A DNA stretch of 64,000 bases from an uncultured Gemmatimonadales bacterium (GCA_963850905.1 CAWKMU010000003.1:2816001-2880000); one strand, 5' to 3'; shown: positions 18,961-39,278, counted from the first letter of the stretch. Notes: a model not told the origin generated them from the sequence alone. Numbers and translations are program-made.

Positions 18961-20000
18961 CTACGGGCGAACCGACGAGCGGACGCCAGATCGCATTCGA
19001 AGTTGCCCCAGACGCCAGCGACCGGCTCGACATGCTGGTGGCCGCCGCGGCGGGGATTTCCCGCACGCAGGCTGCTACGCTGATCGCAACCGACTGCGTT
19101 GCAGTCGAAGGGCGTCGCGAAAAGGCGAGCTACAGGCCCAAGCCAGGGGAGCACATCACGGTCGGCATCCCCGTTGCCCGCGAGCGCACGCTCGTCCCGG
19201 AATCGATTCCCCTCCGCATCGTGTACGAGGATGGCGATCTCCTGGTCGTCGACAAAGCGGCGGGCATGGTCGTGCACCCCGCTCCTGGCCATTGGAGCGG
19301 CACGCTGGTCAACGCGCTTCTGGGCCGGCAGGACGAAACGGCCAACTCCGACGCAATCGATCCGAACGAGCCGCCGAGTGGTTCGATCGCGCGCGCCGGC
19401 CTCATTCATCGGTTGGACAAGGACACCTCAGGTCTCTTACTCGTCGCGAAGACGGAACGAGCGCACCGGCGACTGAGCTCGGCCATGGCCGAGCGACAGA
19501 TCCGACGACGATACGCGGTACTGGTGTGCGGACACCTCCGCGACGACCGGCTCACCATCGAGCAGCCGATCGATCGGGATCCCCGAGACCGAAAGCGGAT
19601 GGCGATCGTCAGTACGGGACGGCCGGCACGGACGGATTTCGTGCGGCTGGCACGATTCGATTCGGTTGACTTGTTGCGCGCTCGGCTACTCACGGGCAGG
19701 ACGCACCAGATCCGTGTACACCTGGCGTCGGCGGGGCACCCGGTCGTGGGTGATGATACGTACGGTGGCGGCGGGGGACGGCGCTTCGTAGGGCTACCGC
19801 CGCGACGGCACTTCCTGCACGCGGCGTGGCTGCTGTTTCGTCACCCGTTGACGGGGGAGCCGATGGACCTGCGGTCGCCGCTGCCAAGTGACCTCGAGAC
19901 GTCGCTGGCTAGTGTCGCAGGGCAGCCTGGAGCGGACGACAGCCGGATTTGGAAGGGGGATGGTCTTGAGGAATGGGGCTTCTACCGAGCCGACGACTGA
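18957..20000 (+). CDS. rluD: RluA/RluD-family 23S rRNA pseudouridine synthase (start codon uncertain)
   Basis: S4-like RLD...SRTQ, DKAAGMVVHP, HRLDKDTSG, TGRTHQIRVH, GDDTYG, FLHA. Confidence 0.88.
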   Translation, partial: VATGEPTSGRQIAFEVAPDASDRLDMLVAAAAGISRTQAATLIATDCVAVEGRREKASYRPKPGEHITVGIPVARERTLVPESIPLRIVYEDGDLLVVDKAAGMVVHPAPGHWSGTLVNALLGRQDETANSDAIDPNEPPSGSIARAGLIHRLDKDTSGLLLVAKTERAHRRLSSAMAERQIRRRYAVLVCGHLRDDRLTIEQPIDRDPRDRKRMAIVSTGRPARTDFVRLARFDSVDLLRARLLTGRTHQIRVHLASAGHPVVGDDTYGGGGGRRFVGLPPRRHFLHAAWLLFRHPLTGEPMDLRSPLPSDLETSLASVAGQPGADDSRIWKGDGLEEWGFYRADD

Positions 20001-20541
20001 CGCGTCCCCGGACGCCGCGGGCGTCGCCGGAGATCAGGAAAATGCGGAGCAGGGTGGAGGAGCACTCCACGCCCTGGGCAACTCAGCCGATGCCCCGCGC
20101 TTGCTCGTGTTCACGGCTGCGGGTCGAACGTGCGCGTGCGAGTTGACCGCGGTTCGGGAGATCATCCCGCATCGGCGGGCGACGCGACTGCCTGGTGCGC
20201 CGTCGTTCGCCGTGGGGCTGATCAATCTCCGAGGATCCATCGTCACGGTACTGGATCTCGGTATTCGACTTGGTGGGCGCGCTGTGGATGTGGAGCGCGG
20301 CTCGATCGTCCTCGTGGACCACGGTTCGAGAGTGGTGGGTTTGGCCGTCGACGAATTGCGTGACGTCCAGCGCGTGTGGCGATCGTCGATCGAACCGGCC
20401 GACGCTGAGGCCGAGCAAGAGGGATTCGTGCGTGGGATGTTGAGGGCAGCGGGCGAGGTCGCCGCGCTGTTGGACGTGAGCCGCATCGTCGCTGATGCCC
20501 TGGGGTCGGCGACGTACCGCCAGCATAACAGCCTGGAGTGA
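19960..20541 (+). CDS. cheW: CheW-like adaptor 1
   Basis: VREII...TRLPGAPSFAVGLINLRGSIVTVLDL, VGLAVDEL, LLDV; overlaps rluD and cheY. Confidence 0.88.
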   Translation: MVLRNGASTEPTTDASPDAAGVAGDQENAEQGGGALHALGNSADAPRLLVFTAAGRTCACELTAVREIIPHRRATRLPGAPSFAVGLINLRGSIVTVLDLGIRLGGRAVDVERGSIVLVDHGSRVVGLAVDELRDVQRVWRSSIEPADAEAEQEGFVRGMLRAAGEVAALLDVSRIVADALGSATYRQHNSLE

Positions 20542-20906
20542 TCGTGAGCCATTCAGTCCTCATCTGTGACGATGCCATTTTCATGCGGACCATGGTGGGT
20601 GATATCCTGCAGCAGGCGGGATTCGACATCGTGGGCGAGGCCGAGACGGGTCTGCAGGCGGTCGAGAAGTACAAGCAGCTTCGCCCGGACCTCGTCACTA
20701 TGGACATCGTCATGCCCGACATGGGCGGGATCGATGCCGTCCGGGAGATCACGAAGTTCGATCCCCAAGCCAAGATCCTGATGTGCAGCGCGATGGGACA
20801 GCAGGCGCTCGTCGTCGAGGCCATCCAGGCGGGCGCGCGGGATTTTGTCGTGAAGCCCTTCCAGCCCAGTCGCGTGCTGGAAGCGGTTCAGCGCGTGCTC
20901 GGCTAG
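20538..20906 (+). CDS. cheY: Single-domain response regulator CheY
   Basis: CDDAIFMR, MDIVMPDMGG, CSAMGQQ, VKPFQ; Bacillus/Thermotoga/archaeal-like CheY pattern. Confidence 0.95.
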   Translation: MIVSHSVLICDDAIFMRTMVGDILQQAGFDIVGEAETGLQAVEKYKQLRPDLVTMDIVMPDMGGIDAVREITKFDPQAKILMCSAMGQQALVVEAIQAGARDFVVKPFQPSRVLEAVQRVLG

Positions 20907-20960
20907 GGTGACGATGCGTCGTCCCTGGTTGGTCGAGTAGGGGCGACGCATGCGTCGCCC
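20903..20960 (+). repeat. Two tandem GTAG-family REP-like palindromes between cheY and cheA
   Basis: Perfect GTAG GGGCGACGCATGCGTCGCCC at 20937-20960; degenerate CTAGGGTGACGATGCGTCGTCCC at 20903-20925 containing the cheY stop. Confidence 0.8.
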
Positions 20961-21003
20961 CCGTTCGGACGACTAGGCGTCCGGGTCGCCCGGCCTCGCA
21001 CGC

Positions 21004-23118
21004 ATGGACGCAGCGCAATACGCCGATCTCTTCCTGACCGAGAGTCGTGAGCACCTCTCGGCCATCAATCTCGCCCTACTCGATATCGAGCGTGGGCTGA
21101 CTGCCAACCCGCCCGCCGGTGACGCGGTCGCGGCGGGCTCCGGGTCCGAAGGCGGTGGAAGCAGCGAGGGCATCGCCGCCGCCGTGGCATCGCTGTTCCG
21201 GGCCGTTCACACCATCAAGGGAATGAGCGCGACGCTGCGCTACGACGCAGTGGCTGCTCTGTCGCACGAGCTCGAAGCCCTTCTCGACCGGCTGCGGCGT
21301 GGAGAGCTCGCGCCCGACGCGAACCTGATGAATATCCTGTTCGCTGCCGCGGATCTGCTCGAAGCATCGATCGAGCGAGCCGTGGCGGGCCAGCCAGATG
21401 ACGCGCGTCTCGAAGAAGTTGTTGGTCGCATTCGACGGGCGGCGGCCGCGCGGCACGAACCAGTGAACGGTCGCGCCGCGCCTGGGCGCAAGACGTCTCG
21501 TGCGAAGCGCGCGCCGCCCGCTCGTCGATCACGAGCGGGCGCCAGAGGTGCCTCGCGAGGAAAGGCCACGAGGCAGCGGGTGCGCCCCGCCGTGCCGCGA
21601 GACGATGCCGCAGGCGGAGCCGAGACGATCGTACGGGTCCACCTGGCCGCCGCAGCGACGTTCCGCGCGGCGCGGGCTGCCGTGGCCGTGCAACGCGCGC
21701 GGGCGCTGGGGGACGTGCTCGGCGTGAGCCCCGTGCTGGAGACCGTGCCAGCGGATGGTCCTGGGCCGGAGGTGATCGAGATCCGTCTGCGCACGCAGGC
21801 GAAGACGGCGGCCATCGTCGGGCAGATCGAGGGGGCAGGGGACGTCGCGCGCGTCGAGGTGCGTCGCGATCGAGTCCGCGGGGGTACGCGACCCGGCCGC
21901 CATTCCGGAGCCGCCCGGCACTCTGCCAACGGCAACGGCGACAGCGGCGCCGATGGCATCGCGCGAACGCGACACGTGCGAATCGATCTGCGACGGTTGG
22001 ACGCGCTCATGGACTTGATCGGCGAGTTGGTCATCGCACGTGGCCGCCTCGTCGAGCTCACGAGCACCGAGGAAGAGTCCGCGCTGAGCGAGGCGGTCGC
22101 CGATGCCAGTCGGTTGATCGGAGACCTGCAGCAGGAGATCATGACCTGCCGGATGGTGCCCGTCTGGCAGGTCTTCGATCGATTCCCTCGCCTGGTACGC
22201 GACACCGCCCAGGTGCTCGGGAAGCAGGTCAGTTTCGAAGTCGAGGGCAAGGACATCGAGCTCGATCGGTCGATGCTCGACGAGATCGGGGATCCGATAG
22301 TCCACCTGCTGCGGAATGCGTTGGATCATGGAATCGAGCTGCCGGACACGCGGGTTGCCGCCGGTAAGCCGCCTCAGGGCCACTTGACGCTGAGCGCTGC
22401 ACGCGACCGATCTGCCGTGCTGATCCGGGTCACGGACGATGGGCGTGGGATCGACCGAAACAAGGTGCTCGTACGTGCGCTCGAGTCTGGGCTCGTGGAC
22501 CCTGGGACGACCGCACTCAGTGACGACGAAGTGATCCGGCTGATCGCGCGCCCGGGCTTCACGACGGCCGAAGAGGTGACAGATGTGTCGGGTCGGGGCG
22601 TCGGCATTGACGCGGTCCAGGCCAGGGTTCGGGCGTTGGGTGGCTCCATCGACATCAAGAGTGCGGCCGGTGAGGGGACCACGGTGACCGCGCGGCTGCC
22701 GCTCACCCTTGCCATCATGCGGGCGCTGCTCGCCCGGGTCGGACGAGAGGCTTATGCCTTTCCCATGGCCCACGTCGACGAAACGGTTGGTACGGAAGGG
22801 GCAAACTATGCGGCCGTGCGCGGTCGCCCAGTGATCGTGATCCGAGGGGAGGCAATCCCCTTCGTGAGGTTGCGTGATCTGGTCGGACTCGAGCCGGCCT
22901 CGAGCCCGGTGCCGACCCCCGATCCCGAGCAGCATGTCATTGTCGTCGAGTCGGGTGGCCATCGGGCCGCAGTCGCGGTCGACGAGCTGATGGGGCAGGC
23001 CGACATCGTCGTGAAGCAGTACGACCATGTGCGCGGCGGTGCGGCGTTGTTCAGCGGAGCCACAGTCCTCGGGGACGGAGCACCCGCCTTGATCGTCAAT
23101 GTGAGCAGCCTTTTCTAG
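21004..23118 (+). CDS. cheA: Chemotaxis histidine kinase CheA
   Basis: HPt FRAVHTIKGMS, dimerisation VRIDLRRLDALMDLIGELVI, N-box HLLRNALDHGIE, DDGRGID, SGRGVG, LPLTLAI, P5 FSGATVLGDG. Confidence 0.96.
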   Translation: MDAAQYADLFLTESREHLSAINLALLDIERGLTANPPAGDAVAAGSGSEGGGSSEGIAAAVASLFRAVHTIKGMSATLRYDAVAALSHELEALLDRLRRGELAPDANLMNILFAAADLLEASIERAVAGQPDDARLEEVVGRIRRAAAARHEPVNGRAAPGRKTSRAKRAPPARRSRAGARGASRGKATRQRVRPAVPRDDAAGGAETIVRVHLAAAATFRAARAAVAVQRARALGDVLGVSPVLETVPADGPGPEVIEIRLRTQAKTAAIVGQIEGAGDVARVEVRRDRVRGGTRPGRHSGAARHSANGNGDSGADGIARTRHVRIDLRRLDALMDLIGELVIARGRLVELTSTEEESALSEAVADASRLIGDLQQEIMTCRMVPVWQVFDRFPRLVRDTAQVLGKQVSFEVEGKDIELDRSMLDEIGDPIVHLLRNALDHGIELPDTRVAAGKPPQGHLTLSAARDRSAVLIRVTDDGRGIDRNKVLVRALESGLVDPGTTALSDDEVIRLIARPGFTTAEEVTDVSGRGVGIDAVQARVRALGGSIDIKSAAGEGTTVTARLPLTLAIMRALLARVGREAYAFPMAHVDETVGTEGANYAAVRGRPVIVIRGEAIPFVRLRDLVGLEPASSPVPTPDPEQHVIVVESGGHRAAVAVDELMGQADIVVKQYDHVRGGAALFSGATVLGDGAPALIVNVSSLF

Positions 23119-23142
23119 GCCGACCCGCGGGAGCCGCTACGC

Positions 23143-23763
23143 ATGGATGACATTCGATCGCTGAAGGCGCACCAACTCGATGCCCTCCGGGAAGTTGCTA
23201 ACATCGGCGCGGGTCACGCGGCGACCGCCCTGTCGCAGATGACCGGCGGCACGATCATGATCAGCGTGCCGACGATCAACATCGCGCGCCTCGAGGACGT
23301 GCCGCCCCAGATCTCGGGCCCCGAAGAGCCGGTCGCGGCCGTGCTGATGAACATGCTCGGTGACCTGACCGGACGGACGTTGCTGGTATTCCCGCACCCG
23401 ACCGCGGTGCGACTGTCGGAGATCATGCTGAGCCGGCCGCGCGGGGGAGATTTCGAGCTGGGCGAGATCGAGCAGTCGGCGATCAAAGAGGCGGGCAACA
23501 TCCTGAGCGGCGCCTACCTCAACGCGCTCAGTGAGTTCATGGGCCTGATGCTCCTCCCGTCACCCCCGAGTCTCGCCGTGGATATGTCGAGCGCGGTGTT
23601 GACGACGGCGTACCTGCAGTTTGGGACGGATCGCGACTACGTGTTTTGCGTCGAGACGGAGTTCTTCATGCAGGAGCTGAAGGAGCGCTTGCGCGGCTTC
23701 TTCCTGCTGCTGCCTGACGTCGCCTCGCTCCACGCGATCCTGCGCGCCGTCCGCGTCGCCTGA
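23143..23763 (+). CDS. cheC: CheC-family CheY-P phosphatase
   Basis: Two ExxN motifs (LREVANIGAGHAATALS; IKEAGNIL), PSPP, FFLLLPD. Confidence 0.93.
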   Translation: MDDIRSLKAHQLDALREVANIGAGHAATALSQMTGGTIMISVPTINIARLEDVPPQISGPEEPVAAVLMNMLGDLTGRTLLVFPHPTAVRLSEIMLSRPRGGDFELGEIEQSAIKEAGNILSGAYLNALSEFMGLMLLPSPPSLAVDMSSAVLTTAYLQFGTDRDYVFCVETEFFMQELKERLRGFFLLLPDVASLHAILRAVRVA

Positions 23764-23784
23764 CGCGAGCGCGGGGGCGGTGGC

Positions 23785-26556
23785 GTGACCGCAACGCGTC
23801 CGAACAACCTGCTCTCTGAACGGGACCGCGAGGTCCTGCGGTCGTTCGCACGGCGCATCGATCCCTCGGACGCCGGCGCGCACAACAACCTCGGAGTCCT
23901 CTACTACCACAAGGGTCTGTACGAGGAGGCCGTCGCCGCGTTCACGCGAGCGCTCGAGCTGGACTCCAAGATGCGCGTGGCGCAGCGCAATCTGGAGATC
24001 GCGTACTTCAGCACCGGCTACTACGATCGTCGCGTCGCGACGCTGCGCGACCGTCTGCGTGCCGCGCCGGAGGACCGGGACGCCCGGTGGGAGTTGGGCC
24101 GCGCGTACAGCCTCCTTGGCCGGTTCGCCGAATCCACCGCTGAATTCGTCGAGCTACTCAAGCACCATCCCAACGATCTCGGCGCCCTCGTCCAGTTGGG
24201 CCTGGCCGAAAAATCGTCGGGTGACCTCGAGCAAGCCCAGACCTGGTTCGAGCGGGCACTCGCGTTGGATCCCGAAAGTCCCGTCATTCTCTTTTACATC
24301 GGCGAGGTCCTGTACAATCGTGGGTTGAACGACGAGGCGTTGGTCGCACTCGAACGCGCCATTGCGGCGCATCCTGACAACCCCGATGCGCACTACCTGA
24401 TGGGCTTCGTGCTGGGCGACATGGGTCGTCACGAGGACGCTCGTCAGGCAACCAAGCGCGCCGTGCAGCTCAACCCGGCGTTGTCGAGAGCGCAGACCAA
24501 TCTGTCGCTCGACGAGTCGGCCCTCGCCAAACCGGCACCCGCGTCCGAAGCGACGAATCGGCTGGCAGAAGCCGCGATGACCGTGGCCGACGAGGGCGCG
24601 CTCGCGCATTTCAACCTCGGACTCGCCTTTCGGCAAAAGGGCTATTACGCCGAAGCGTTGCATGAATACGAGCTCGCGCTCACACGCGGGGAGGAGCGGG
24701 GCCTCGTCCAACAGGCAATCGCCGAAGTGCACCTGCTCCGACGGGATGTCACCGGCGCCGTGGCGGGGTACGACCTGCTCCTCGTCGACCATCCGACGAG
24801 TCCGAAACTGTGGAACGAGCGCGGTGTGGCCCTCCACCAGGATGGCCGCTACGAAGAGGCCGCACACAGCTACCGGCGCGCCATCGACTGCGACGCGCAC
24901 TACGCGATCGCCCACAACAATCTCGGTGTGGCGCGCTATCACGCGGGTGAGCCGGATGCCGCGGCGGAATCATTCGGCGCTGCCTTGCAACTGGTGCCCG
25001 GGTTCGCGCACGCGCGGTTGAACCTCGCACTCCTGCACTTCAAGGCAAAAAGGCTCCCGGCGAGCTTGGAGTCGTACCGCCGGGTGCTGGCCGACGAGCC
25101 CGAAAATGCCGCGGGATGGAATGGAGTCGGGCTGGTCCTGACGGAGCTGCGTCGGTTCGACGAGGCGCGCAATGCTTTTGCGCGTGCGGTACAGAGCAAA
25201 CCCGGGTACGCGGAGGCCCGCTACAACCTGAGTTTTGCGCTGTCGAACCTCGGCGAGTTCGATGCGGCCCTTCGCGAGACGAAACGCGCGATTGAGCTCG
25301 ATCCCTACTACGTGCCGCAAAAATTCGAGCTGGCGATCGACTTCCAGTATGAGCATCCCGAGCTCTCGATCGTGCCGGATCTGGGGGGCGCCGCCCGCGC
25401 CGACGAGCATGCCATCGCCGATTTCGCGTTCGATCCGTCGCTCCTCGACTCGCTCTTCACCACGCTGACCCCGGCGGCTGGCGTCGAAGCGGTGCAGCCC
25501 CTCGGTCCCGACCCGTACGGCATTGCGCTCGACTACCTGTCGAAAGGGATGTACGAGCGGGCGACAGCCGAGGTCAGTCGCGCGCTGCTCCGCGGAGCCG
25601 ATCGCGCGAGCGGCATGACGATCCTCGGGGACTTGTTCCAGCGCCAGGGCCTCCATGGCGAGGCGTTGGATCGATACCGCGACGCGCGGCGGACGAATCC
25701 GGGTGCCGCTCGAGCGCTGGCCGGCGAAATTCGCGCGCTCGTCGCGCTCGGACGTGGCGCGGACGCTCGATCCGCCGCCGATGAGCTCCTGCACGTGGCC
25801 CCGAACGATACCGATGCACTGCTGGCCGTCGCGGCCGCACGGGCGAGTGGCGGAGATCCCACCGGCGCCCTCGCGTTGCTCGAGACCGCGAAGGGCCTCG
25901 CCCCAGAGCGGGCCGACGTGCTGCACGCTGTCGGTGATGTGAGCCGGGACGCCGGCGACACGGGGAACGCCGTCGCCGCTTATCGTGCCGCACTGGTCCT
26001 CGACCCCGAACGCGCGGTCATCCGTTACGAGTTGGCACGGCTGCTCGCCGCGACCGCCAACGTGGCTGAGGCGGAAGCAGAGCTCCTCGCGGCACTGGAA
26101 CAGGTCCCCACGTACGCACATGCCACGCTGGCACTGGCCGATCTGTGGCGCACCTCCGGTCGCACCGCCGAGGCGATCGACCTGCTGGTCGGGCTGCTCG
26201 AGCGCGACCGGTCGCACGTCGATGGGCTGTTGGTCTTGGGAGAACTGCTGTTCGATGCCGGGCGCCGGCGCGACGCCGCCCGCGTGTTTGCCAGGCTCCT
26301 CGTGGTCGATCCAGCGCATCCCGGCGCGCTGTATTACGGCGGCGCGCTCCTCGCGGATCAGCACCGCTATCGAGAGGCGATTGAGCGCTGGGATGCCGTG
26401 ATCGCCACGCAGCCGGACGGGCTGTTTGGCCAACGCGCGCGCCGGGATCGACGAACCGCGAGAGACCTCGCACACATCTTCGTGCGCCGCCAAGAGACGC
26501 AGGGCGGTGGGCTGGGCGCGGTGCAGGCGGAACTCGCGTTCGGGAGGGCCAGCTAG
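23785..26556 (+). CDS. Large cytoplasmic multi-TPR protein (923 aa)
   Basis: Many TPR units (AHNNLG..., AHFNLG..., ARYNLS...); no signal peptide; acidic non-TPR insert centrally. Confidence 0.9.
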   Translation: MTATRPNNLLSERDREVLRSFARRIDPSDAGAHNNLGVLYYHKGLYEEAVAAFTRALELDSKMRVAQRNLEIAYFSTGYYDRRVATLRDRLRAAPEDRDARWELGRAYSLLGRFAESTAEFVELLKHHPNDLGALVQLGLAEKSSGDLEQAQTWFERALALDPESPVILFYIGEVLYNRGLNDEALVALERAIAAHPDNPDAHYLMGFVLGDMGRHEDARQATKRAVQLNPALSRAQTNLSLDESALAKPAPASEATNRLAEAAMTVADEGALAHFNLGLAFRQKGYYAEALHEYELALTRGEERGLVQQAIAEVHLLRRDVTGAVAGYDLLLVDHPTSPKLWNERGVALHQDGRYEEAAHSYRRAIDCDAHYAIAHNNLGVARYHAGEPDAAAESFGAALQLVPGFAHARLNLALLHFKAKRLPASLESYRRVLADEPENAAGWNGVGLVLTELRRFDEARNAFARAVQSKPGYAEARYNLSFALSNLGEFDAALRETKRAIELDPYYVPQKFELAIDFQYEHPELSIVPDLGGAARADEHAIADFAFDPSLLDSLFTTLTPAAGVEAVQPLGPDPYGIALDYLSKGMYERATAEVSRALLRGADRASGMTILGDLFQRQGLHGEALDRYRDARRTNPGAARALAGEIRALVALGRGADARSAADELLHVAPNDTDALLAVAAARASGGDPTGALALLETAKGLAPERADVLHAVGDVSRDAGDTGNAVAAYRAALVLDPERAVIRYELARLLAATANVAEAEAELLAALEQVPTYAHATLALADLWRTSGRTAEAIDLLVGLLERDRSHVDGLLVLGELLFDAGRRRDAARVFARLLVVDPAHPGALYYGGALLADQHRYREAIERWDAVIATQPDGLFGQRARRDRRTARDLAHIFVRRQETQGGGLGAVQAELAFGRAS

Positions 26557-28662: not shown

Positions 28663-29006
28663 GCTCTCCCTTCATCGATCTGCTGCTCGGGCTTGCGAGG
28701 CATCGGGGCGTGCAGGGCGGCCTAATCGTCAGCGAACGCGATGGAATTGTGGTGGACGCCCACGTCCAGATTGGCGTGCGCACGAGCGTCGTCGCGGCGC
28801 TGGCGGCGTCGATCTATCGCAGGGCACGACAGTCCGCTGGCGCCGCGGGGCTCGGCGCGGTGACGTACCTCGAGCTCGTCGCGGCGAGTGGGAGACTCTG
28901 TATGGCCGGGCGCGACGATCTGGTGATCGTCGTGATCACCGACGCTCGGGCAACGGCCGGTCTCCTGCGGACGGCTGTCCTTCGCGCCTGCGAGACGCTG
29001 GCGTGA
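28659..29006 (+). CDS. Stand-alone Roadblock/LC7 protein (MglB/MglC superfamily)
   Basis: GVQGGLIVSERDGIVV, VAALAAS, AGLG, TAGLLR; ATGA overlap with the upstream gene. Confidence 0.82.
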   Translation: MSSPFIDLLLGLARHRGVQGGLIVSERDGIVVDAHVQIGVRTSVVAALAASIYRRARQSAGAAGLGAVTYLELVAASGRLCMAGRDDLVIVVITDARATAGLLRTAVLRACETLA

Positions 29007-29473: not shown

Positions 29474-29477
29474 GCCC

Positions 29478-30125: not shown

Positions 30126-30138
30126 CGGAGGGACGTCG

Positions 30139-32112
30139 GTGCAGCTGGACGAGCGATATCGCTTCGACAACTTCGTCGTTGGCTCTGCCAACCGGCTGGC
30201 GGCAGCTGCCGCTCGAGCTGTGGCCGAAGCCCCGGGCACGACCTACAACCCGCTCGTGATCTACGGGGCGACGGGCCTCGGGAAGACGCACCTGCTAGGC
30301 GCCATCGGCAGCCACGCCGCCAGCCTCCAGCCCGGCTTGCATGTGGACGCACTCGCGCTGGACGAGTTTGTGCGTCAGCTCCACGCGGCCGTATCGGTGG
30401 GCGAGGTCGATGCTTTTCGACAGCGGTATGCGCACGCCGACATGCTCCTGATCGACGATATCCAGTTCCTCACGGGCCGGCGGGAGACACAGACGGAGTT
30501 GCTGCGGTTGTGCCAGTCGCTGCAAGACAGCGGACGCCAGATCGTATTGACCAGCGACCGCCCGCCCACCGAGATCACGGATGTGGACGATCGCCTCGTC
30601 GCACGGCTGGCGGGTGGTCTGGTCGTCGACATCGGAGTCCCGGACTATGAGACGCGGGCTGCAATGCTCGCGACCTGGTGCCAGGAGCGGAGCGTGCAAT
30701 GCGGGCCCGGTGTCATCGAGGAGTTGGCGCGCCTCGATCTGCGCAACATTCGTGAGCTGCAGGGCGCGCTGACTCGCGTTGTCGCATACCAGACTCTCGG
30801 GCCCAATGGACGAACGATCGAGGTCAGTGACGTGCGTCGGTTGTTCGCGGCCCAGTCCGAGCGGCGTCGCACGGACACACGAGGGACCGGTGAGCCGCGC
30901 ACGCCATCCGCCAATGGTGCCGCGCCGGAAGCGGGTGAATACCTGAATTTCCTGTCCGACATGGCCAGCGCGGTCGCCCAGCATGTCGAGCCGTGGCGCA
31001 TGCAGCTCGCCGAGGCAGCGGCGTACTGGGCGGGCGAGGGGTATCGACCGGCAATCCTCGAGCGCGCGCTGCACGCGAGTGTGGACCCTGGAAGCGAAAG
31101 CGTGCTCAATGCCTACGTCGCGACGATTGAGCGCCTGCGCGCGCTCGAGACGGAGGTCCTGCAGATCGACCCGTCCGTGGCGGGCACTGACGTCTTCCGG
31201 GATCCGGAGCGTGTCGCCGAAGCCGAGGGATTGTTGACCCGTGTGCGCGCCGGCACCACTCCGCCTTCGGGGCCATCGACCGAGTTCACCCGTCGTGGCT
31301 TTGCGGTGGGCAACTCCAATGAGCTGGCGGTGCGTGCCGCGGATGCGGTCGTGTCGGAACCGGGCCGCCGGTTCAATCCGCTCTTCGTCCACGGACCGAG
31401 TGGCGTCGGCAAAACGCATCTCCTCAATGCGATCGGCAACGGGCTCGTGGCCGCACGACAGGGTCGCAGTGTCGTGGCGTGCGTGGGCGCCCAATTACTC
31501 ATCGATGAGCTGATCGATGCGCTGCGAGAGGGACAGGTAGAACGGTGGCGGCGCCGCTACCGGGCCACGGATGCACTGCTCATCGACGACGTCCATTTCC
31601 TGGCAGGGAAGGAGCGGACGCAAGAGGAGTTCTTTCACGTCTTCAATGACCTGTACGCCGCCGGCAAGCAGATCGTGCTGACGAGCGATCGCCCGCCGCA
31701 AGCGCTGGCGGAGCTCGAGGGACGACTCCAGTCACGGTTCGCGGGAGGTCTCGTGGCGGAAATCCAACCGCCGGACCACGACCTGAGAGAGAAGCTCTTT
31801 ACCCACTACCTCAGGACCACGACCGCCGGCCGTGACACTGCACTGGCCGAGTACCTCGCCGCGCAACCCGTTGCGAATGCGCGTGAGATCCTCGGAGTGG
31901 TCAATCGCCTGGCCGCCGCCGCGGAGATGGCGGCCGTGTCGCTCACCCTCGATTTCGCTCGGACCCAGCTGGAAGCCGGAGGAACCGCGGACCCGACGCC
32001 CCCTCAGGCACTCGTGACGTCCCCGGGCCTGGATCCGTACTTCCTGGACGCCGAGCGTGTCATCTGGGAATGGCCCGAGCCGGCGGGGCGTGTCATTGAG
32101 GAGTGGCGCTGA
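30139..32112 (+). CDS. Tandem DnaA-like AAA+ protein (two domain-III copies, no domain I/II or IV), 657 aa
   Basis: Copy 1: YRFDNFVVGSANRLA, YNPLVIYGATGLGKTHLL, LLIDDIQFL, TSDRPP, RLVARL, NIRELQGAL. Copy 2: FAVGNSNELA, FNPLFVHGPSGVGKTHLLNAIGN, LLIDDVHFLAGKERTQEEFFHVFN, TSDRPP, RLQSRF, NAREILG. SD GGAGGG before the GTG. Confidence 0.92.
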   Translation: MQLDERYRFDNFVVGSANRLAAAAARAVAEAPGTTYNPLVIYGATGLGKTHLLGAIGSHAASLQPGLHVDALALDEFVRQLHAAVSVGEVDAFRQRYAHADMLLIDDIQFLTGRRETQTELLRLCQSLQDSGRQIVLTSDRPPTEITDVDDRLVARLAGGLVVDIGVPDYETRAAMLATWCQERSVQCGPGVIEELARLDLRNIRELQGALTRVVAYQTLGPNGRTIEVSDVRRLFAAQSERRRTDTRGTGEPRTPSANGAAPEAGEYLNFLSDMASAVAQHVEPWRMQLAEAAAYWAGEGYRPAILERALHASVDPGSESVLNAYVATIERLRALETEVLQIDPSVAGTDVFRDPERVAEAEGLLTRVRAGTTPPSGPSTEFTRRGFAVGNSNELAVRAADAVVSEPGRRFNPLFVHGPSGVGKTHLLNAIGNGLVAARQGRSVVACVGAQLLIDELIDALREGQVERWRRRYRATDALLIDDVHFLAGKERTQEEFFHVFNDLYAAGKQIVLTSDRPPQALAELEGRLQSRFAGGLVAEIQPPDHDLREKLFTHYLRTTTAGRDTALAEYLAAQPVANAREILGVVNRLAAAAEMAAVSLTLDFARTQLEAGGTADPTPPQALVTSPGLDPYFLDAERVIWEWPEPAGRVIEEWR

Positions 32113-33743
32113 TGGCGATCCGCGGTAGCCTCCGCGAGGCGAGCTTGCCCGATGTGCTCCAGTTGCTTGCCATGGGCAAGAAGACGGGCTGCTTGAGCGT
32201 CACCCATCGCGACAACTTCGGCTACGTCTACTTCGACCGTGGTCGCATCGCCTTTGCATCGATCGTGAACCGCAGAGACCGACTTGGCGACCTCCTCGTC
32301 CAGGCCGGGTTGTTGACCCACGAGCAGCTCGATGTGGCGATTGAAACGCAGCACGAACAGCCTGACCGGCGTCTGGGAGAGATCCTCATCGGCCTCGGGT
32401 ACGTCACGCGTGAGGCGCTCCACGACCAGGTGCGCACGCAGATCGAGGAGGCGGTGTACTTCCTGTTCACGTGGTCGCACGGCACGTTCAGCTTCGAGCC
32501 CGACGTCCGCCCTGACGAACACGGCTTTGTCGTGTCGATCAATCCTGAGTCGCTACTCCTCGAGGGCGCGCGGCGTGTCGACGAATGGGGGTTGATCGAG
32601 AAGAAGATCCCGAGCTTCGACCTGGTGTTTCATGCCGATCGCGTGCGCCTGCACGAGAGCGAAGCCACGCTGACGCCAGCGCAGCGCACCGTCGTGAACC
32701 TGCTCGATGGCGAGCGCGACGTGCGCGCCATCATCGAGGACTCCGGGCTCAGCGAGTTCGAGATCGCCAAAGCGCTGTACGGGTTGGTGTCGGCCAGCTT
32801 CGTGCGGCGAGTCGGGCGGACCCGCGCGGCAGAGCCAGCGGTATCGGATGCGCGGGTGGACGAGCATCGCAATCTCGGCATTGCGTTCTACAAGACCGGC
32901 ATGCTCGATGAGGCGATGCGGGAGTTTCGTCGCGTCGCGGAGCTTCGGCCGGCCGATGCCGCGGCAGCGTTCTACATCGGTCTCGTCCACATGCGGCAGG
33001 GCAACTGGCCCGCGGCGGTCGACGCCTGCCGGGAGGCGAGCGCGCCACCGTCACCAGGAGCGGCTGCGCTACACAACCTGGCGTACGCGTTGGAACGCCT
33101 CGGGCAATACGACGCGGCGGAAACGGCGCTCGAGCAGGCGGTGGCGCGGGGAGGCGGTGACGACCCGCGCGTTCGTACATCGCTGGCGGTGCTGGCACTT
33201 CGGCGCGGCGACCTGGCCGATGCCGAGGCGTTGCTGGCGGGCGCACGGGCTGCGTGGGGCACGCGTCGGCCGCCTGCCGCCTGGTACCATTACGCCGGAT
33301 TGACCAGCGCCCTGGCCGGCCAACTCGATCAGGCCGTGGCGCTCCTGGAAGAGGGCCTCGGACACTATCCGCACGCAGGGGTGCTGTACAGCAACCTGGC
33401 CGCCGTCCAGGAGCGTCGCGAGGCGTTGGCCGAGGCGGCCGTCGCGGTGGAGCGCGGATTGCAAGAAGACGCGGCGATCGCGCAGCTCCACAAGATCGCG
33501 GGTGATCAGGCCTATCGAGCGACGCACTACGACGAAGCGCTCGACGCATATCAGCGCGCGGCGCGCATCAATCCCTCGCTCGGCAGTGACCTCTATCTGA
33601 GGATGGGGAACATTCGGTATCGGCGCGGGGAGATCGACGCAGCACTCGAGGCGTGGGGACGGGCGCTGGAGATCGATCCCGGCAACGCCATTGCGCGCAA
33701 TAACATCGAGGCGGTGCACCGGACGGCTGGTGCGCCCGCGTGA
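32112..33743 (+). CDS. DUF4388 protein with tandem MshEN motif and C-terminal TPRs
   Basis: MAIRGSLREASLPDVLQLL...KTGCL; RLGDLLVQAGLL...Q...RLGEILIGLGYV...Q; LLLEGARRVDEW; multiple TPRs; TGATG overlap with the DnaA-like gene. Confidence 0.88.
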   Translation: MAIRGSLREASLPDVLQLLAMGKKTGCLSVTHRDNFGYVYFDRGRIAFASIVNRRDRLGDLLVQAGLLTHEQLDVAIETQHEQPDRRLGEILIGLGYVTREALHDQVRTQIEEAVYFLFTWSHGTFSFEPDVRPDEHGFVVSINPESLLLEGARRVDEWGLIEKKIPSFDLVFHADRVRLHESEATLTPAQRTVVNLLDGERDVRAIIEDSGLSEFEIAKALYGLVSASFVRRVGRTRAAEPAVSDARVDEHRNLGIAFYKTGMLDEAMREFRRVAELRPADAAAAFYIGLVHMRQGNWPAAVDACREASAPPSPGAAALHNLAYALERLGQYDAAETALEQAVARGGGDDPRVRTSLAVLALRRGDLADAEALLAGARAAWGTRRPPAAWYHYAGLTSALAGQLDQAVALLEEGLGHYPHAGVLYSNLAAVQERREALAEAAVAVERGLQEDAAIAQLHKIAGDQAYRATHYDEALDAYQRAARINPSLGSDLYLRMGNIRYRRGEIDAALEAWGRALEIDPGNAIARNNIEAVHRTAGAPA

Positions 33744-33753
33744 GGACCGCGCG

Positions 33754-34575
33754 GTGATCGGTCAGGACGCCGAGAGCGACGAGTCGTTCGACGCGCTGCT
33801 CGCGAAGATTGCGCGCGATCGTGAGTTCGAGTGTGGCAGCTACAAGGTGCGCTGTCTGCGTCGTCGCATCGCGGTCCGACTCCGTGCGCGCAACGTGGCC
33901 ACGTACGAAGAGTACGCCGCGCTGCTCGATGCGGACCAGCGTGAATACGAGAAACTGCTTGACGCACTGACTATCAACGTCACGAAGCTCTTTCGTAACT
34001 GGGAGACCTACGCCGCGCTCGAGCGCCACGTCGTACCCGCTCTCTGGTCGGCGTCGGACGAGGCCCTGCGCGTGTGGAGCGCCGGGTGTGCGTCCGGAGA
34101 AGAGGCGTACTCGCTGGCCATTCTGTTCCACCGGCATGCGGCAGCCGCAGGCCAGGAACGCCACCTGGATCGCCTGGGCGTGACCGGGACCGACATCGAT
34201 CGGGACAGTCTGCAGGCAGCAGCGCGGGCCGCGTACGTCGAGTCGGCCTTTGCCGACACCCCTGCCGAGATCCGGCGCGCCTATTTCAGCGGTGGCTCGC
34301 CGGCGGTGGTCGATCCGCGCATTCGGGCGCTCGTCCACTTCTCGTCCCACGACCTGATCCGGCACCCGATGCCCAGCGACCAGCATCTCATCGCATGCCG
34401 CAACGTCGTCATCTACTTCGATCGCCCCGCGCAAGAACGGCTTTTCCAGCGCTTTCACGCCGCGCTCGCCCCCGGGGGATTTCTCGTCCTCGGTAAGGTC
34501 GAGACGCTGCTCGGCCCGACGCGGAGCCTCTTCACGGCGATCGACGCGCGCGAGCGGATCTTTCGGCGTGCCTGA
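33754..34575 (+). CDS. cheR: Protein-glutamate O-methyltransferase CheR
   Basis: LTINVTKLFRN, RVWSAGCASGEEAYSLA, GTDID, CRNVVIYFD, GFLVLGKVE. Confidence 0.95.
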   Translation: MIGQDAESDESFDALLAKIARDREFECGSYKVRCLRRRIAVRLRARNVATYEEYAALLDADQREYEKLLDALTINVTKLFRNWETYAALERHVVPALWSASDEALRVWSAGCASGEEAYSLAILFHRHAAAAGQERHLDRLGVTGTDIDRDSLQAAARAAYVESAFADTPAEIRRAYFSGGSPAVVDPRIRALVHFSSHDLIRHPMPSDQHLIACRNVVIYFDRPAQERLFQRFHAALAPGGFLVLGKVETLLGPTRSLFTAIDARERIFRRA

Positions 34576-35107
34576 CTCGCGTGCGGCCGCTCGCTTGGGT
34601 CAGCGCCTCGTTGCGGGCCCTGGCGCCGTGGAGGCCATCCGGGTGCGGGTGGCCGATTACGCGGTCGCATCGGGTGACGCGATCATCGCGACGCTCGGAC
34701 TCGGCTCGTGCGTGGCGATTGCCATCCACGATGCGCGCGCACGCGTCGGCGGGCTCGCCCACGTGTTGTTGCCCAACGAGAGCATGTCCCGGGATCGCAG
34801 CAACGGCGCGAAGTTTCCCGCGACCGCCGTCCCGCTTCTGCTGAAGGAAATGCGCGCGCTCGGTGCACGCGGCCCTTTCACCGGCCGACTGGTTGGCGGG
34901 GCCAGCATGTTCGCCGCGCTGCTCCCGATCGGCGGCGTGAACATGGGGCAGCGCAATGTCGACGCGGCGCGCCGGGCGTTGGTGGATGCGGGAGTCGCAA
35001 TTGTGGCCGAGGATACTGGCGGAGGATACGGCCGCAGCGTCTACCTCCACGTCGGCGACGGGAAGATGGTCGTCAAGTCGCTGGTCAATGGCGACCGTGA
35101 GCTCTAG
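34568..35107 (+). CDS. cheD: Chemoreceptor glutamine deamidase CheD (start may be further downstream)
   Basis: TLGLGSCVAI, GGLAHVLLP, GGASMF, GQRN, EDTGGGYGRSV. Confidence 0.95.
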   Translation: MPDSRAAARLGQRLVAGPGAVEAIRVRVADYAVASGDAIIATLGLGSCVAIAIHDARARVGGLAHVLLPNESMSRDRSNGAKFPATAVPLLLKEMRALGARGPFTGRLVGGASMFAALLPIGGVNMGQRNVDAARRALVDAGVAIVAEDTGGGYGRSVYLHVGDGKMVVKSLVNGDREL

Positions 35108-36240
35108 CGCCGGAGTCAACCACGCGACGGAGGCGACGAGCGGTGAGCGCGTGCGCCCCCGCACCGTGTTGGTCGTGGATGACAGTGCGTTCATGCGGCG
35201 CGTGATCAGCGACATGATCGGCTCTGCTGCCCCCGAGTTCCGCGTCGTCGGCACGGCGCGCGATGGCGCGGACGCGCTGAGGCAGATTCACGGGCTCGAG
35301 CCCGACATTGTGACCCTCGACATCGAGATGCCGGTGCTGGACGGCCTCCGGGCCCTGGCGCAGATCATGGCCGACGCTCCACGGCCGGTGGTGATGCTGA
35401 GTGCAGCAGCGGGGGGCAACAACGCCGAGCTGACACTCAAAGCGCTCGAGCTCGGAGCGGTTGACTTCGTACGCAAGCCGTCAGGCCCGGCGCGACTGGA
35501 CCTCTCGACCGTCCGCGAGCGGTTGTTGAGCGCCCTTCGTGCGGCGGCGATCGTGAATCTCGGCGGGGTCAAGCCGCTCACGGACGGCGCGGATGTCGTC
35601 GCCTCCGGGGCTGCGCGCTCCAGCAGCGCCGATTGGGTGGTCGTCGTCGCAGCGTCCACGGGCGGCCCACGCGCCCTAGCGGAGATGATCCCCGCAATGC
35701 CACCCGCCATTGGGGCGGCGGTGCTCGTCGTGCAACACATGCCCGGTGGGTTCACACAAAGCCTGGCGCACCGGCTGGACCGCGCGAGTCGCCTCCGGGT
35801 TGGCGAAGCCACGGCCGATGAGCTCATCGTCAACGACCGGGTCTATCTCGCCCCGGGGGGATTTCACATGCGCATCGGGCGGCGCGACGGGCAGCCCGTT
35901 GTGGCGCTCGACACGAGCCCCCCGATGTGGGGCGTCCGGCCCGCGGCCGATCTGCTGTTCAGCAGTGCGGCGGAGGCATTCGGCCCGCGCGTCATCGGTG
36001 TCGTGCTGACCGGCATGGGTCGCGACGGTGCGCAAGGGCTCCGTGCGATCCGAGACGCGGGTGGGCAGGGCGTCGTCCAAGATCAGAATGACATCGATCG
36101 TGTTCGGCATGCCGCAGGCTGCGCTCTCGGTCGCTGGAGCCGACCGCGTCGTCCCACTCTCGGACGCAGCGAGCGCAATCCTCGACCTCATGCGAACGGC
36201 ACGCGGGTTGGTCGCCGGTGACCGAGGCATGGGATCATGA
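35088..36240 (+). CDS. cheB: Receiver + methylesterase CheB; +1 frameshift at ~36087
   Basis: VVDDSAFMR, LDIEMP, catalytic ASTGGP, QHMP, LTGMGRDG; C-terminal TSIVFGMP lies in the +1 frame. Confidence 0.93.
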
Positions 36241-36771
36241 CCGCGGGCCATCGGGGTGCTCGCCCCTCGGCGGAGACGAGGGCCGTCGGTGCCGGCGCAT
36301 CGCGGGCCCCGCTGCCGGAAGCGAGTTGTTGATCTTCCGGGCAGGTGACGAGCGGTTTGCCATGGCGGTCAGCCCTCTCGAGGCAGTCATCCGAGATGCC
36401 CAGGTTGCAGCCGCTGCCCGGCATGCCCGCCGGCATGATCGGCGTCGCGGAGCTCCGCGGCAGTTTGATACCGGTCTATTCGCCCGCTCGCGTGCTGAAT
36501 GTCAGCGTGGACCAGCCGGCCGCCGCGATTATCGTCCGGCTGGGGCGGGGTGGAACGTCGGGTGCGGGGCGTCGAGCCGCCATCGCGGTGACCGCAGCGG
36601 AGGGTGTCACCGTTTACGAGCCAGATGCTTGGAGTGGCGTGGGCGGGCCGACTCCGACAGCAGGCCTCGTGCGCGGGGTGACGACGGTCGAGGGACAGCT
36701 GACAACCCTCGTGGACGCGATGGCATTTCGTTGCCGCCTGCATGGACGGGTCATTTCGGGAGGACGCATGA
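36218..36771 (+). CDS. cheW: CheW-like adaptor 2 (degenerate); +1 frameshifts at ~36391 and ~36727; start uncertain
   Basis: LLIFRAGDERFA...EAVI / EMPRLQPLPGMPAGMIGVAELRGSLIPV; the corrected end AFVAACMDGSFREDA* overlaps the next ATG. Confidence 0.7.
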
Positions 36772-37319
36772 CGACGAGTGCCGCTCGTGGCGCGAGACCG
36801 CTGGCGACCGAGCACATGCCGTCGGGTCACGACGCGATGCAGATCGTCACCTTCCGCATCGGGGCCGACCTCTTCGCAGCCGACGTCAGAGCCGTCGAGC
36901 GCGTGCTCCGATACCAACCTGCGACCCCCCTCCCTGAGGTGCCGCCGTGGGTCGCCGGCGTGCTCGAATACCAGCAGCGCGTCGTGCCAGTGATCGATCT
37001 GCGGGTGCGATTCGAGGTGGCTGGGGCGAGTCCCTCGCCCGACACCCGGATCATCGTCTTCAATACGAATGGTGCGTGGACAGCCGGAGTGGTGGATGCG
37101 GTGTTGGACGTGAGCGCGATCGAACGGAACCGTCTTGAAGCGCCACCGCCGCTGCTGAATGGGCTCTCCGCCGAGTACCTGCACGGCATTGTCCGCCGCG
37201 AGGGGCAGCTCGTGTTGTTGCTCAACGCCAATCGCGTGTTGTCATCGACCGACGAGCGACTCCTCGCGACGCGCATCGCCGAAATGACGCCGAGTAAGCG
37301 GGGAACGCGGCGTGTCTGA
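36768..37319 (+). CDS. cheW: CheW-like adaptor 3
   Basis: QIVTFRIG, TPLPEVPPWVAGVLEYQQRVVPVIDLR, GVVDAV, YLHGIV; own SD GGAGG. Confidence 0.85.
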   Translation: MTTSAARGARPLATEHMPSGHDAMQIVTFRIGADLFAADVRAVERVLRYQPATPLPEVPPWVAGVLEYQQRVVPVIDLRVRFEVAGASPSPDTRIIVFNTNGAWTAGVVDAVLDVSAIERNRLEAPPPLLNGLSAEYLHGIVRREGQLVLLLNANRVLSSTDERLLATRIAEMTPSKRGTRRV

Positions 37320-38204
37320 CAACGCCGTAGCACCTCCCGCTCGCCAGAGCGAGCTCCGAAGACGGTATGCGGCGATTGAAGCGCGGCTCGACACTGGGGA
37401 TGCAAAGGACGGCGACCTCCGGGCCCAGCTGAAGGCTGAGATCGTCGCCCTCTACCGCACGGTCGATCAGCAGCTCACCGAGCTCGGGGCCCTCAAGGAC
37501 GAAATCCGCCGGCTCGTCGACAAGTGGAAGGCCGCGGCAGCCGGAAGTGGCCACCAACGCGCCGCAATTCAACGGCGAGCGACCGGTCGCGGTGCACGTC
37601 GATCACATCGGCGCCTCGACATTCATCGAGAAGGGTTGGAGCCGGATTTCCCTCGGCGATTACGAGGGGGCCGAAGCCGCGTTGAAGAAGGCGCTCGAGC
37701 TCTCGCCCAACGACCCGCAGTCCGAGTCGTTGCTGGGGTGGGCGCAGATGCTGCAAGACAAGTACGACGATGCGCTCCTGAACTTCCAGCGGGTGCTTGA
37801 TGCGCCAGCCTGCGAATGCACTCGCGCGCATCAATGTCGGCTATATCTGCCTCAAGAAGCGCATTTTCGGCGAGGCGATCGAGCATCTGTCCAAGGCGAT
37901 CCGTCTCGACAATGACCGGAAAGCCACGCTTTACGCACACTTCTATCTCGGGCTCGTGTATCTGGAGCGCGAGATGTTCGAGGACGCGCAGACTTTCTTT
38001 CAGAAGACGCTCGCCCTTGGGCCTAATCTGATCGAGGCGCATTACGAGCTCGGCCGGGCGCGCTGGTTCGCGGGCGACCGCGACGGCGCCATGGAGACTT
38101 GGCGCGCCGGCTACGCGGCGAACAAGTTCAATCCATGGGGCAAGCGGTGCGCGGAAGTGCTCGAGGCGGTGGCGGCCGGAGGCGAACCACCCCGCACGTC
38201 CTGA
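37312..38204 (+). CDS. Coiled-coil + TPR protein; two +1 frameshifts (~37543, ~37797)
   Basis: Three consecutive ORF pieces (37312, 37547, 37797 frames) join into an N-terminal helical region plus ~5 TPRs. Confidence 0.75.
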
Positions 38205-39278
38205 GCATCGGCGGAGGTGTCCTGAGGGGGCGGACACCGAGGCCGCGCCGCCTGCGGCGCACATCATGGCTCCTCTGCCTCGCGATGGTCCTCGCCGGGC
38301 CTCGCCTCGCAGATGGCGCTCTTGCGGGACAGACGCCGACTCGTCCAGCAACAATTGATACAGTTCCGGTACGCTTGGACGGGGGTCGCTTTTCCGTAGT
38401 CACTGAGCCCAAGGACATGCGGCTGGCAAAGTCGCTCCTGGGGTCGGCGCTCGCGCACGATACCTTCCCCGGGCTCCCGCGACCGCGCGCCCACGTCGTC
38501 ATCGCGATCGCGCCCGACGCGCACCACTTTCGAGCCTGGTCGGGTCCAGCTGCGCCCGAATGGGGCGCGGCGGTGGCATTTCCCGACGCGCAGCGCGTGG
38601 TCGTGCAAGGCGGCTCGGCGACGTCGGCGGCGGGCGATCCGATTCCGACGCTTCGCCACGAGCTCGCCCACCTCGCGCTCCACGAATACCTGGGCGACTT
38701 GGCCCCTCGGTGGTTCGACGAAGGCTACGCCATGTACGCGGAGGGCGGGCCCGGCCGCGATGACATTCTGGGGACCAACGTCGCACTCGCCCTGCGCGGC
38801 GTGCCGACGCTCGCCTCGCTCGACACCGGACTGGTGGGGGCCGAAGGCCAGGCCGCCGTCAGTTACGCATTGGCCTATCGTGCGGTCGCCGACCTCGCGC
38901 ATCTCGGATCCTGATCGCGGGCTGACGCTCCTGTTTCGTTACTGGCGGGAGTCCGGCTCGCTCGACGTCGCAGTTCGGAGAGCGTACGGCGAGCCGCTGG
39001 ACACGTTCGAGTCAGCCTGGCGCGCCCACACGCGACACCGGTATGGCGCACTCGCCCTGGTCTCAGACCTCTCATTTGCGACCGCAGTGTTTCTCGGGCT
39101 TCTGACACCGCTGTATCTCGCGCGGCGCCGGCGTGACCGGGTGCGGCTCGAGGCGCTCCGCGAAGCCGAGGCGGCGGCCGACCGGGTCCGGCTCGCGGTA
39201 GCGCTCTCGGGGAATGGCCAGCAGCCGGACGGCGGCCCGGATAGCCCCCGAGGCGGCCGGTCGGAGGTGGCCAGCTAG
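38201..39278 (+). CDS. Peptidase MA-like (gluzincin) exported/membrane protein; +1 frameshift at ~38906; start uncertain
   Basis: LRHELAHLAL, PRWFDEGYA, N-terminal hydrophobic signal, C-terminal TM followed by RRRRDR. Confidence 0.75.

Follow-up and report, generated by a model that had tools for sequence, protein, structure and literature searches.

A stretch of 64 000 nt from an uncultured Gemmatimonadales soil bacterium, of the little-studied phylum Gemmatimonadota (GCA_963850905.1, CAWKMU010000003.1:2816001-2880000), referred to here as the window, holds on its + strand, at 19960–39278, a block of 19 genes in which a chemosensory (Che) core stands together with genes for MglA and MglB, for scaffold proteins built from PATAN (DUF4388), MshEN and tetratricopeptide repeat (TPR) domains, and for an ATPase of the DnaA clade. 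A sequence-only reading of the window had put forward this combination as a candidate system, and our analysis supports the proposal in part: the block is conserved and is apparently an undescribed variant of chemosensory–MglA system with a new family of DnaA-derived ATPases. The full-text literature searched for the block held no description of it, subscription papers being mostly outside the coverage.

A Pfam scan and the reading frames bear out the 19 co-oriented genes in the order originally given, as well as their tight packing. From cheW to cheD, 7 of 13 junctions overlap by 1–8 nt (the cheW–cheY value being measured with an upstream GTG as the cheY start) and 5 of 13 have gaps of 7–24 nt; the single wider junction is cheY–cheA, with 97 nt. 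Terminator-like sites within the block are not in excess (5, versus 7.8 ± 3.3 expected from shuffles), and all of them fall within genes. The lone promoter-like site lies at 39343, beyond the last gene.

Conservation of the block and its separable parts

The 20 loci taken first, which represent three families, all have this gene order, and loci belonging to other orders of the class show it as well, so that it extends across Gemmatimonadales and some sister orders. Among 201 genomes of the phylum (including one unpublished genome, G016, on which alone no claim rests), 136 have a match to a segment of 120 residues from the ATPase linker: 126/140 in the order, 9/45 in other orders and 0/15 in other classes. 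The block CheC matched 133 of the 201, and whole families of the phylum are without the block.

We examined 58 loci, 50 of them with both flanks visible (bracketed loci). One caveat here is that deviant loci were picked deliberately, and hence the bracketed-locus counts over-represent losses. The constant gene of the block is that for the PATAN/DUF4388-MshEN-TPR protein B (32112..33743), present in 50/50 bracketed loci; then come cheY (46), the first ATPase domain, AAA1 (45), mglA (44), cheA (43), the second ATPase domain, AAA2 (38), cheB (37), and cheR and cheD (34 each). All eight core genes are kept in 37/50.

The Che-to-polarity circuit had been described as hard-wired in one operon, and this description does not survive the comparison of relatives. 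Mgl genes occur without Che genes (L170–L173), Che genes without mglBA (L051, L164–L166), and two minimal loci (L147, L148) keep the ATPase and its PATAN-MshEN-TPR partner with no Che or Mgl gene. In L175 and L176 (genomes G063 and G130), the block MglA has diverged strongly (37–42% identity) and the large TPR protein is cut short; there is no match to cheR, cheD or cheB. Loci L153–L155 (genus g31) have mglA and show no match to the block mglB, roadblock, TPR-roadblock or cheR genes.

These patterns bear on the possibility that the block consists of two or three independent modules (Che, Mgl–PATAN A, ATPase–PATAN B) that are transcribed together as a convenience of regulation and do not act in one pathway. 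The modules are lost independently of one another, and the block runs on from the housekeeping genes ileS-dksA-lspA-rluD with no gap, as would suit such an arrangement. However, the non-Che genes are nested within a split Che set, in the same order in several orders, the eight core genes stay together in those 37 of 50 bracketed loci, and CheY is without a flagellar target in most genomes. We consider a mere sharing of transcript very improbable.

The DnaA-derived ATPase and its docking tail

The gene at 30139..32112 encodes a protein with the layout AAA1–helical linker–AAA2–tail, as judged by two PF00308 stretches and a fold model. AAA1 shares 44% and AAA2 41% identity with the DnaA of the same genome, the two share 35% with each other, and they form separate, well-supported groups in a domain tree (midpoint-rooted, with 67/182 domains used and a canonical sample drawn mostly from Patescibacteria). 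The predicted fold is that of DnaA domain III (Foldseek target TM 0.94, rmsd 1.5 Å to domain III of B. subtilis DnaA); the relative orientation of AAA1 and AAA2 in the two-domain model (pTM 0.47) is tentative. The label 'initiator-clade ATPase', taken to mean an initiator, proved misplaced: the protein begins at the AAA+ domain, with no N-terminal domain I, it has no helix-turn-helix domain IV, and a complete dnaA lies elsewhere in the genome. A genome-wide search for domain IV (PF08299) gave a match at the true dnaA only, and PF08299 was found in none of 120 homologues among the matches listed.

The protein shares the domain III fold and catalytic motifs with DnaA and Hda, and like Hda it is devoid of the helix-turn-helix; it differs from both in its two tandem domains, novel linker and docking tail, with no domain I or IV. 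It scores 156.6 bits against the Hda model TIGR03420, under the cut-off of 194.8, and has two domains where Hda has one. It does pass the NCBIfam DnaA equivalog cut-off (504 versus 344 bits), by adding two domains, and many of its homologues carry the label 'chromosomal replication initiator DnaA'; the family is therefore being mis-annotated. A scan of contigs with the whole ATPase, aimed at its range outside the phylum, was set aside: 77 of the 80 loci kept belong to other lineages and behave as canonical dnaA. Apparent in-frame ATPase–PATAN fusions (P0203, P0085, P0035) were left aside as likely artefacts of a deletion or frameshift.

Both domains of the window protein have all six catalytic residues (Walker A/B, sensor I, arginine finger, sensor II set). 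Across homologues, all six are found in 37/51 AAA1 rows and 11/45 AAA2 rows, compared to 77/78 canonical DnaA rows (one AAA1 row, L062, is mislabelled AAA2 in this tally). AAA2 has the arginine finger in 43/45 rows and the box VII Arg in 44/45, and the sensor I Asp in only 18/45. At what we take, from E. coli DnaA, to be the positions that contact single-stranded DNA (ssDNA), AAA1 has Glu in place of a basic residue in 40/51 rows, while AAA2 has Arg in 36/45 and Ile, Val or Leu in 37/45. One could thus imagine that the ATPase senses ssDNA, for example DNA imported via a pilus or competence machine, and reports to a polar hub, as AAA2 keeps two DnaA-filament contact positions while often losing sensor I. 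But AAA2 is the most dispensable part of the protein, its contact residues may be mere inheritance, and no competence gene was identified in the block; of the readings we considered, we hold this to be the least probable.

In the linker (30937..31269), which was defined here by alignment, an amphipathic helix of acidic-aromatic character precedes a single copy of an unnamed helical repeat; neither the linker nor the repeat corresponds to a Pfam family. The C-terminal tail (32020..32112) has an invariant Glu, Trp, Arg and Glu and is a predicted binder of the TPR groove of protein B, whose start codon is overlapped by the ATPase stop codon. The tail pattern abuts the protein B start in 50/58 loci; among the eight misses, a variant tail is visible in L044, L144 and L151, and L153 has a tblastn match to the tail.

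AAA2 is shortened or lost in several lineages. Six loci from two genera have neither the ATPase domains nor the repeat, and their gene is reduced to a frame of ∼60–80 codons that comprises the first linker helix and the tail and still abuts the PATAN-MshEN-TPR start. Helix and tail are kept in 6/6 of these mini-protein loci, which form one clade (support 100); an origin of the mini-protein in two separate events was accordingly rejected. The frames look to be under selection, to judge by codon changes: L164 and L165 differ by 7 synonymous and 0 non-synonymous changes, and L164 and L166 by 16, 14 and 43 changes at the three codon positions, more distant pairs being less biased. The 53-residue MshEN insert of protein B is present in 42/48 PATAN rows and missing only in the six rows of the mini-protein clade.

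We modelled the L164 mini-protein with its PATAN-TPR neighbour. The docking score was 0.80, compared to 0.03 for the best of 3 controls, with at least 89% of contacts agreeing between runs and a partner pLDDT of at least 74. The mark is reached by 116/157 solved complexes and 2/215 mismatched pairs, counts that are rough here given the home-made alignments. In the model, the tail sits in the TPR groove and the linker helix lies outside the confident interface. The modelling supports the predicted binding of the tail to the TPR groove of the PATAN-MshEN-TPR protein.

The linker repeat is found well beyond the phylum, its profile matching 389 cluster representatives. The best 150 of the 389 include proteins of 850–3090 aa with up to 20 matched stretches, several of which end in a DnaA-type ATPase and zinc ribbons; cluster members of these repeat-ATPase proteins are named Thermoplasmata or Euryarchaeota archaeon by NCBI. 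One set (P0076, P0123, P0131, P0165–P0168 and P0170; 1250–1360 aa; cluster members Thermoplasmata archaeon) has ∼8 helical repeats, a DnaA-type AAA+ domain that shares ∼50% identity with bacterial DnaA and, in most cases, zinc ribbons; domain IV is absent. Others (P0050, P0021, P0036, P0127, P0141, P0146) have the same repeat in long arrays with no ATPase, one of them fused to DUF835. All six catalytic residues are present in 7/8 archaeal ATPase domains, which branch among canonical DnaA, apart from AAA1 and AAA2. The tree lends no support to a common origin of the archaeal and Gemmatimonadota ATPases, the archaeal domains grouping with canonical DnaA. For the archaeal N-terminal domain, leads from the Atlas were 0.88 (DUF2226) and 0.85 (PatA_N), both under 0.9; HHalign against PF14332/PF09987 gave an E value of 0.024, reached by 1/60 column shuffles; and no DUF4388 or DUF2226 match appeared among the families shown in a Pfam scan of the repeat-ATPase proteins. 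The Thermoplasmata repeat proteins had no match in two metagenome scans, and the linker had no usable one in the Atlas. Within Gemmatimonadota, a paralogue lying outside the block (L152:11000-12757, and P0135) has a domain with a weak match to the Fe-hydrogenase large subunit (E 0.014), followed by the linker and a tail-like end, which suggests that the linker–tail unit is a portable module.

Coupling to the cell cycle was offered as a possible role in the sequence-only reading, and this could take the form of DnaA-derived domains that, in the manner of Hda, co-polymerise with true DnaA or give it an arginine finger, and so tie the state of the pole to replication initiation. The identity of both domains to the genome's own DnaA, the six catalytic positions kept in the window domains, and the near-constant arginine finger and box VII Arg of AAA2 would all fit. 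Yet domains I and IV are absent, AAA2 is kept in 38/50 loci only, one clade has deleted both ATPase domains, and the frequent Glu of AAA1 replaces a basic ssDNA-contact residue. Moreover, the linker repeat also accompanies a DnaA-type ATPase in proteins of Thermoplasmata, which are not expected to use DnaA for initiation. The data do not support this coupling, which we regard as quite improbable.

Inputs, output and rival readings

The pathway had also been called receptor-less. This is correct for the block, which contains no gene for a methyl-accepting chemotaxis protein (MCP), but not for the genome, which has four MCP genes elsewhere, three of them with Cache-HAMP, GAF or HAMP input regions. 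The block cheA is the only CheA gene of the genome (tblastn); elsewhere in the genome, a CheB-CheR-PAS-histidine kinase fusion (L182:5297-8917 and 9084-10109) lies beside an IS30-like transposase. Across the phylum, MCPs occur in 143/201 genomes, including 131/133 CheC-positive ones, and are lacking in 9/14 CheC-negative genomes of the order. Because the genome has MCPs and these track the block CheC across the phylum, the pathway has receptors encoded in trans. One 99%-complete genome, G064, looks like a truly receptor-less variant: it has no MCP match, and its block (L177, G064:C4:70000-89999, ∼3000–5600, reversed strand) encodes CheY, CheC and a CheA that has the His and kinase boxes and ends before the CheW-like domain, with no cheW, cheR, cheB or cheD.

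CheC and CheD are both part of the block Che set, which may resemble F1-class chemosensory systems; its best NCBIfam matches are halophile CheA and Thermotogales CheC, each under cut-off. The usual target of CheY appears to be missing: FliM/FliN and flagellin were looked for in the genome (82% complete) and none was found, and FliM/FliN occur in just 7/41 relatives searched, among which the block is near-universal. PilM and five ATPases of the T2SSE/pilus family are above cut-off in the genome.

The block GTPase (29481..30125; phmmer to MglA 5ymx, E 6e-71) falls, by its sequence motifs, in Group 1 of the MglA family of small GTPases. Its P-loop, intrinsic Arg finger and catalytic Gln motifs are intact in a motif survey, and its G4 motif ends in Asn, not Asp, in the window and in three same-genus loci. 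The preceding gene (29003..29473) encodes an MglB-like roadblock protein (phmmer to MglB chains 6h5b/6izw, E ∼1e-6, a weak match). Both are the genome's second copies. Another mglB-mglA pair lies on contig C4, downstream of dnaX-ybaB-recR, and it is this pair, not that of the block, which holds the dnaX-ybaB-recR-mglB-mglA synteny described for deltaproteobacteria (PMC3983030). At least one MglA match was found in 140/140 genomes of the order. Given the dnaX-ybaB-recR-linked pair and the presence of MglA in all 140 genomes, it is the pair in the block that is additional and dispensable. The Mgl polarity switch proposed for the block stands as regards the presence of MglA and MglB, with the qualification that this MglA is a paralogue of the linked copy.

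DUF4388/MshEN architecture was claimed for both scaffolds; the MshEN motif reaches its NCBIfam cut-off in the second alone. Protein B has a tandem MshEN motif of 53 residues (32280..32438; NF053729, 55.5 bits, cut-off 38), in line with the two 24-residue motifs and 5-residue spacer given for MshEN cyclic di-GMP (c-di-GMP) receptors in PMC5013675, and by this motif it is a predicted MshEN c-di-GMP receptor. Protein A (26556..27710; PF14332, E 2e-30), a PATAN/DUF4388-TPR protein, has no NCBIfam match at E 1e-8, and in its MshEN-like insert the first Arg is replaced by Pro. A GGDEF-type motif occurs in 8 frames of the genome; in L008 (3812-5338), a gene for a GAF-GGDEF diguanylate cyclase, which might supply the MshEN protein with c-di-GMP, lies directly upstream of the Cache-HAMP MCP gene. 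As to partners, PATAN is reported to bind PilB1 and PilC in Synechocystis (10.1101/2021.06.11.447907), and in M. xanthus MglA recruits the TPR protein SgmX, promoting pili (PMC11580455); a list of candidates in the latter paper includes two PATAN proteins.

In our judgement, the block probably, though far from certainly, encodes a cytoplasmic, pole-associated hub that integrates chemosensory, c-di-GMP and GTPase inputs and controls where and when type IVa pili work. Its Che membership is observed; the wiring would be as follows. Scattered MCPs would signal via CheW-CheA to CheY, with reset by CheC/CheD and adaptation by CheR/CheB. There being no flagellar switch, phosphorylated CheY would, by analogy with Frz-Mgl, act on TPR and roadblock proteins that regulate the dedicated second MglA/MglB. 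As modelled, the C-terminal tail of the DnaA-derived protein would clip into the TPR groove of protein B, and the two chains together would rebuild the MshEN-plus-ATPase layout of pilus motors. MshEN would read c-di-GMP, and the ATP/ADP state of AAA1 would serve as a switch or an oligomerising scaffold, possibly triggered by the AAA2 arginine finger. The PATAN domain, extrapolating from Synechocystis, would be the output, contacting PilB/PilC. The tail–TPR pair would then be the core, with Che, Mgl and the ATPase domains as inputs that lineages can drop.

Several observations weigh against this hub. The Che and Mgl halves are lost separately in relatives. No pilus gene was identified within the block in any of the loci, and PilM is found in 188/201 phylum genomes, families without the block included, so that co-occurrence with pili does not discriminate. 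The co-loss of MshEN and the ATPase domains is a single event, because all six loci form one clade (support 100), and hence it counts once. The docking model was built, with home-made alignments, on the reduced L164 pair of a relative rather than on the window's full-length proteins. TPR–peptide complexes are common among solved structures, so the docking pass may partly reflect likeness to them. Conservation of the modelled interface does not significantly exceed that of the remaining TPR region (0.61 versus 0.57, permutation p = 0.18), and the Glu-Glu at the tail end may double as the ribosome-binding site of the next gene.

With the same internal wiring, the hub might instead serve a polar or developmental process other than piliation, for example pole identity, asymmetric division, adhesion or secretion. 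Genomes have pili whether or not they carry the block, the canonical mglBA is already there for motility (at least one MglA being found throughout the order), and the block has a fixed place in the chromosome, with ileS-lspA-rluD on one side and, on the other, a TPR gene followed by rsmH-ftsI-murE, which begin a cell-wall/division cluster. However, a promoter-like site and tRNA-Val lie between the block and that cluster, and PATAN and MshEN are both tied to motors of pili or type II secretion (10.1101/2021.06.11.447907 and PMC5013675). In addition, seven of the sampled genomes of the order match MglA once and the linker not at all (G068, G108, G112, G114 and G223, and, with a reduced block, G096 and G098). 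These genomes, together with the whole families without the block, argue against an essential role in division. We think a non-pilus process unlikely, and we retain the pilus-directed hub as the working interpretation.

A broader and more tentative proposal, which we would not rate as probable, concerns the ATPase fold itself. The DnaA catalytic core may have been recruited apparently twice, in Gemmatimonadota and Thermoplasmata, as a signalling switch that is independent of DNA boxes and has one helical repeat and a domain of PATAN type as its companions. In Gemmatimonadota the switch would be docked by its tail on a c-di-GMP-binding PATAN-TPR protein, placing an ATP/ADP switch beside the MglA GTP/GDP switch downstream of a chemosensory kinase. 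If so, chemosensory output would gain a new class and AAA+ signalling proteins a new family, with the DnaA ATPase fold used outside replication.

Known systems share parts of this composition. The Frz-MglA/MglB system of M. xanthus (with RomR/RomX, MglC, RomY and SgmX) also has a Che core, a Group 1 MglA, MglB, extra roadblocks and a large TPR protein. There, mglA lies away from its partners' genes (PMC4316618), whereas here all are in one gene block, which adds CheC, CheD, two PATAN proteins and the DnaA-derived ATPase, and whose MglA is a paralogue of the dnaX-recR-linked copy. The PatA-type (PATAN-REC) regulators of cyanobacterial Tax/Pix systems likewise encode PATAN/DUF4388 with a Che system; in those the domain is fused to a receiver, whereas here it is fused to MshEN and TPRs and CheY is separate. 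In MshE/PilB extension ATPases, the same 53-residue tandem c-di-GMP motif is associated with a P-loop ATPase; in the block, MshEN and ATPase are on separate chains, and the ATPase belongs to the DnaA initiator clade, not to the secretion ATPases. The survey of Wuichet and Sogaard-Andersen (2014, PMC4316618) states that PATAN genes adjoin some Group 1 MglA genes, and one table row of its supplement gives, for Gemmatimonas aurantiaca GAU_1409, the neighbourhood PATAN>MglA>-PATAN> beside a separate MglB>MglA> locus. This is consistent with a reduced form of the block, although the passages found mention no Che, DnaA or TPR gene of the locus and there is no functional work.

Chemosensory output in non-flagellated Gemmatimonadota is undescribed in the literature searched, and even in Myxococcus Che is linked to MglA indirectly. 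The candidate linkers are gathered here in one block, a natural deletion series ranks them, the modelling offers a specific interface, and a cultured species (GAU_1409) appears to carry a reduced form.

Remaining genes, sequence errors and flanks

The block opens with cheW1 (19960..20541; PF01584, E 2e-32), whose inferred ATG start at 19960 overlaps the end of rluD. Next come cheY (20538..20906; PF00072), a stand-alone receiver with the phosphoacceptor motifs and 78–100% identity in most relatives, cheA (21004..23118), with Hpt, dimerisation, HATPase and CheW domains and the His, N and G boxes, and cheC (23143..23763; PF04509), a phosphatase gene with both ExxN sites. A soluble TPR protein of 923 aa (23785..26556; Pfam and hydropathy scan) is SgmX-like by architecture only. 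Between protein A and MglB lie a TPR-roadblock fusion (27703..28662; PF03259 and TPR matches) and a stand-alone roadblock protein (28659..29006; PF03259, E 9e-7). After protein B follow, by Pfam, cheR (33751..34575; methyltransferase) and cheD (34568..35107; deamidase, with Cys and His motifs). None of the 14 proteins from cheW1 to cheD has a clear membrane segment in a rough hydropathy scan.

The last five genes are cheB (35110..36240; receiver and methylesterase, start approximate), cheW2 (36218..36770, limits approximate), cheW3 (36765..37319; Pfam, start approximate), a coiled-coil-TPR gene (37312..38204) and a gene for a peptidase-MA-like HEXXH protein (38240..39278; PF13485, start approximate) with one C-terminal hydrophobic segment. 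Four of these are broken by single extra bases: cheB at 36087, cheW2 at 36393 and 36726, the coiled-coil-TPR gene at 37539 and 37795, and the peptidase gene at 38905. Each of the six bases is absent from near-identical contigs in four public runs of one study, the evidence per site being one or two low-depth contigs, and a close relative, L063, has two of these genes as single frames (the coiled-coil-TPR frame of 304 codons and the peptidase frame); we therefore read all six frameshifts as assembly errors. The cheB insertion (window 36087) recurs in L060, L062 and L063, which are long-contig assemblies of different genomes. We considered it as a real feature, given that four long-contig assemblies share it, and rejected this: short-read contigs lack it, as do other same-genus loci, and the pattern suggests that the position is prone to a systematic sequencing error.

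In most loci, the upstream flank is ileS-dksA-lspA-rluD (window 14488-20000), and downstream of the block (window 39751-46588) are tRNA-Val, a TPR protein gene and then rsmH, ftsI and murE, the start of the cell-wall/division cluster. Upstream of rluD, lspA-like genes form a tandem pair in L044, L056, L058, L153–L155, L158 and L160.

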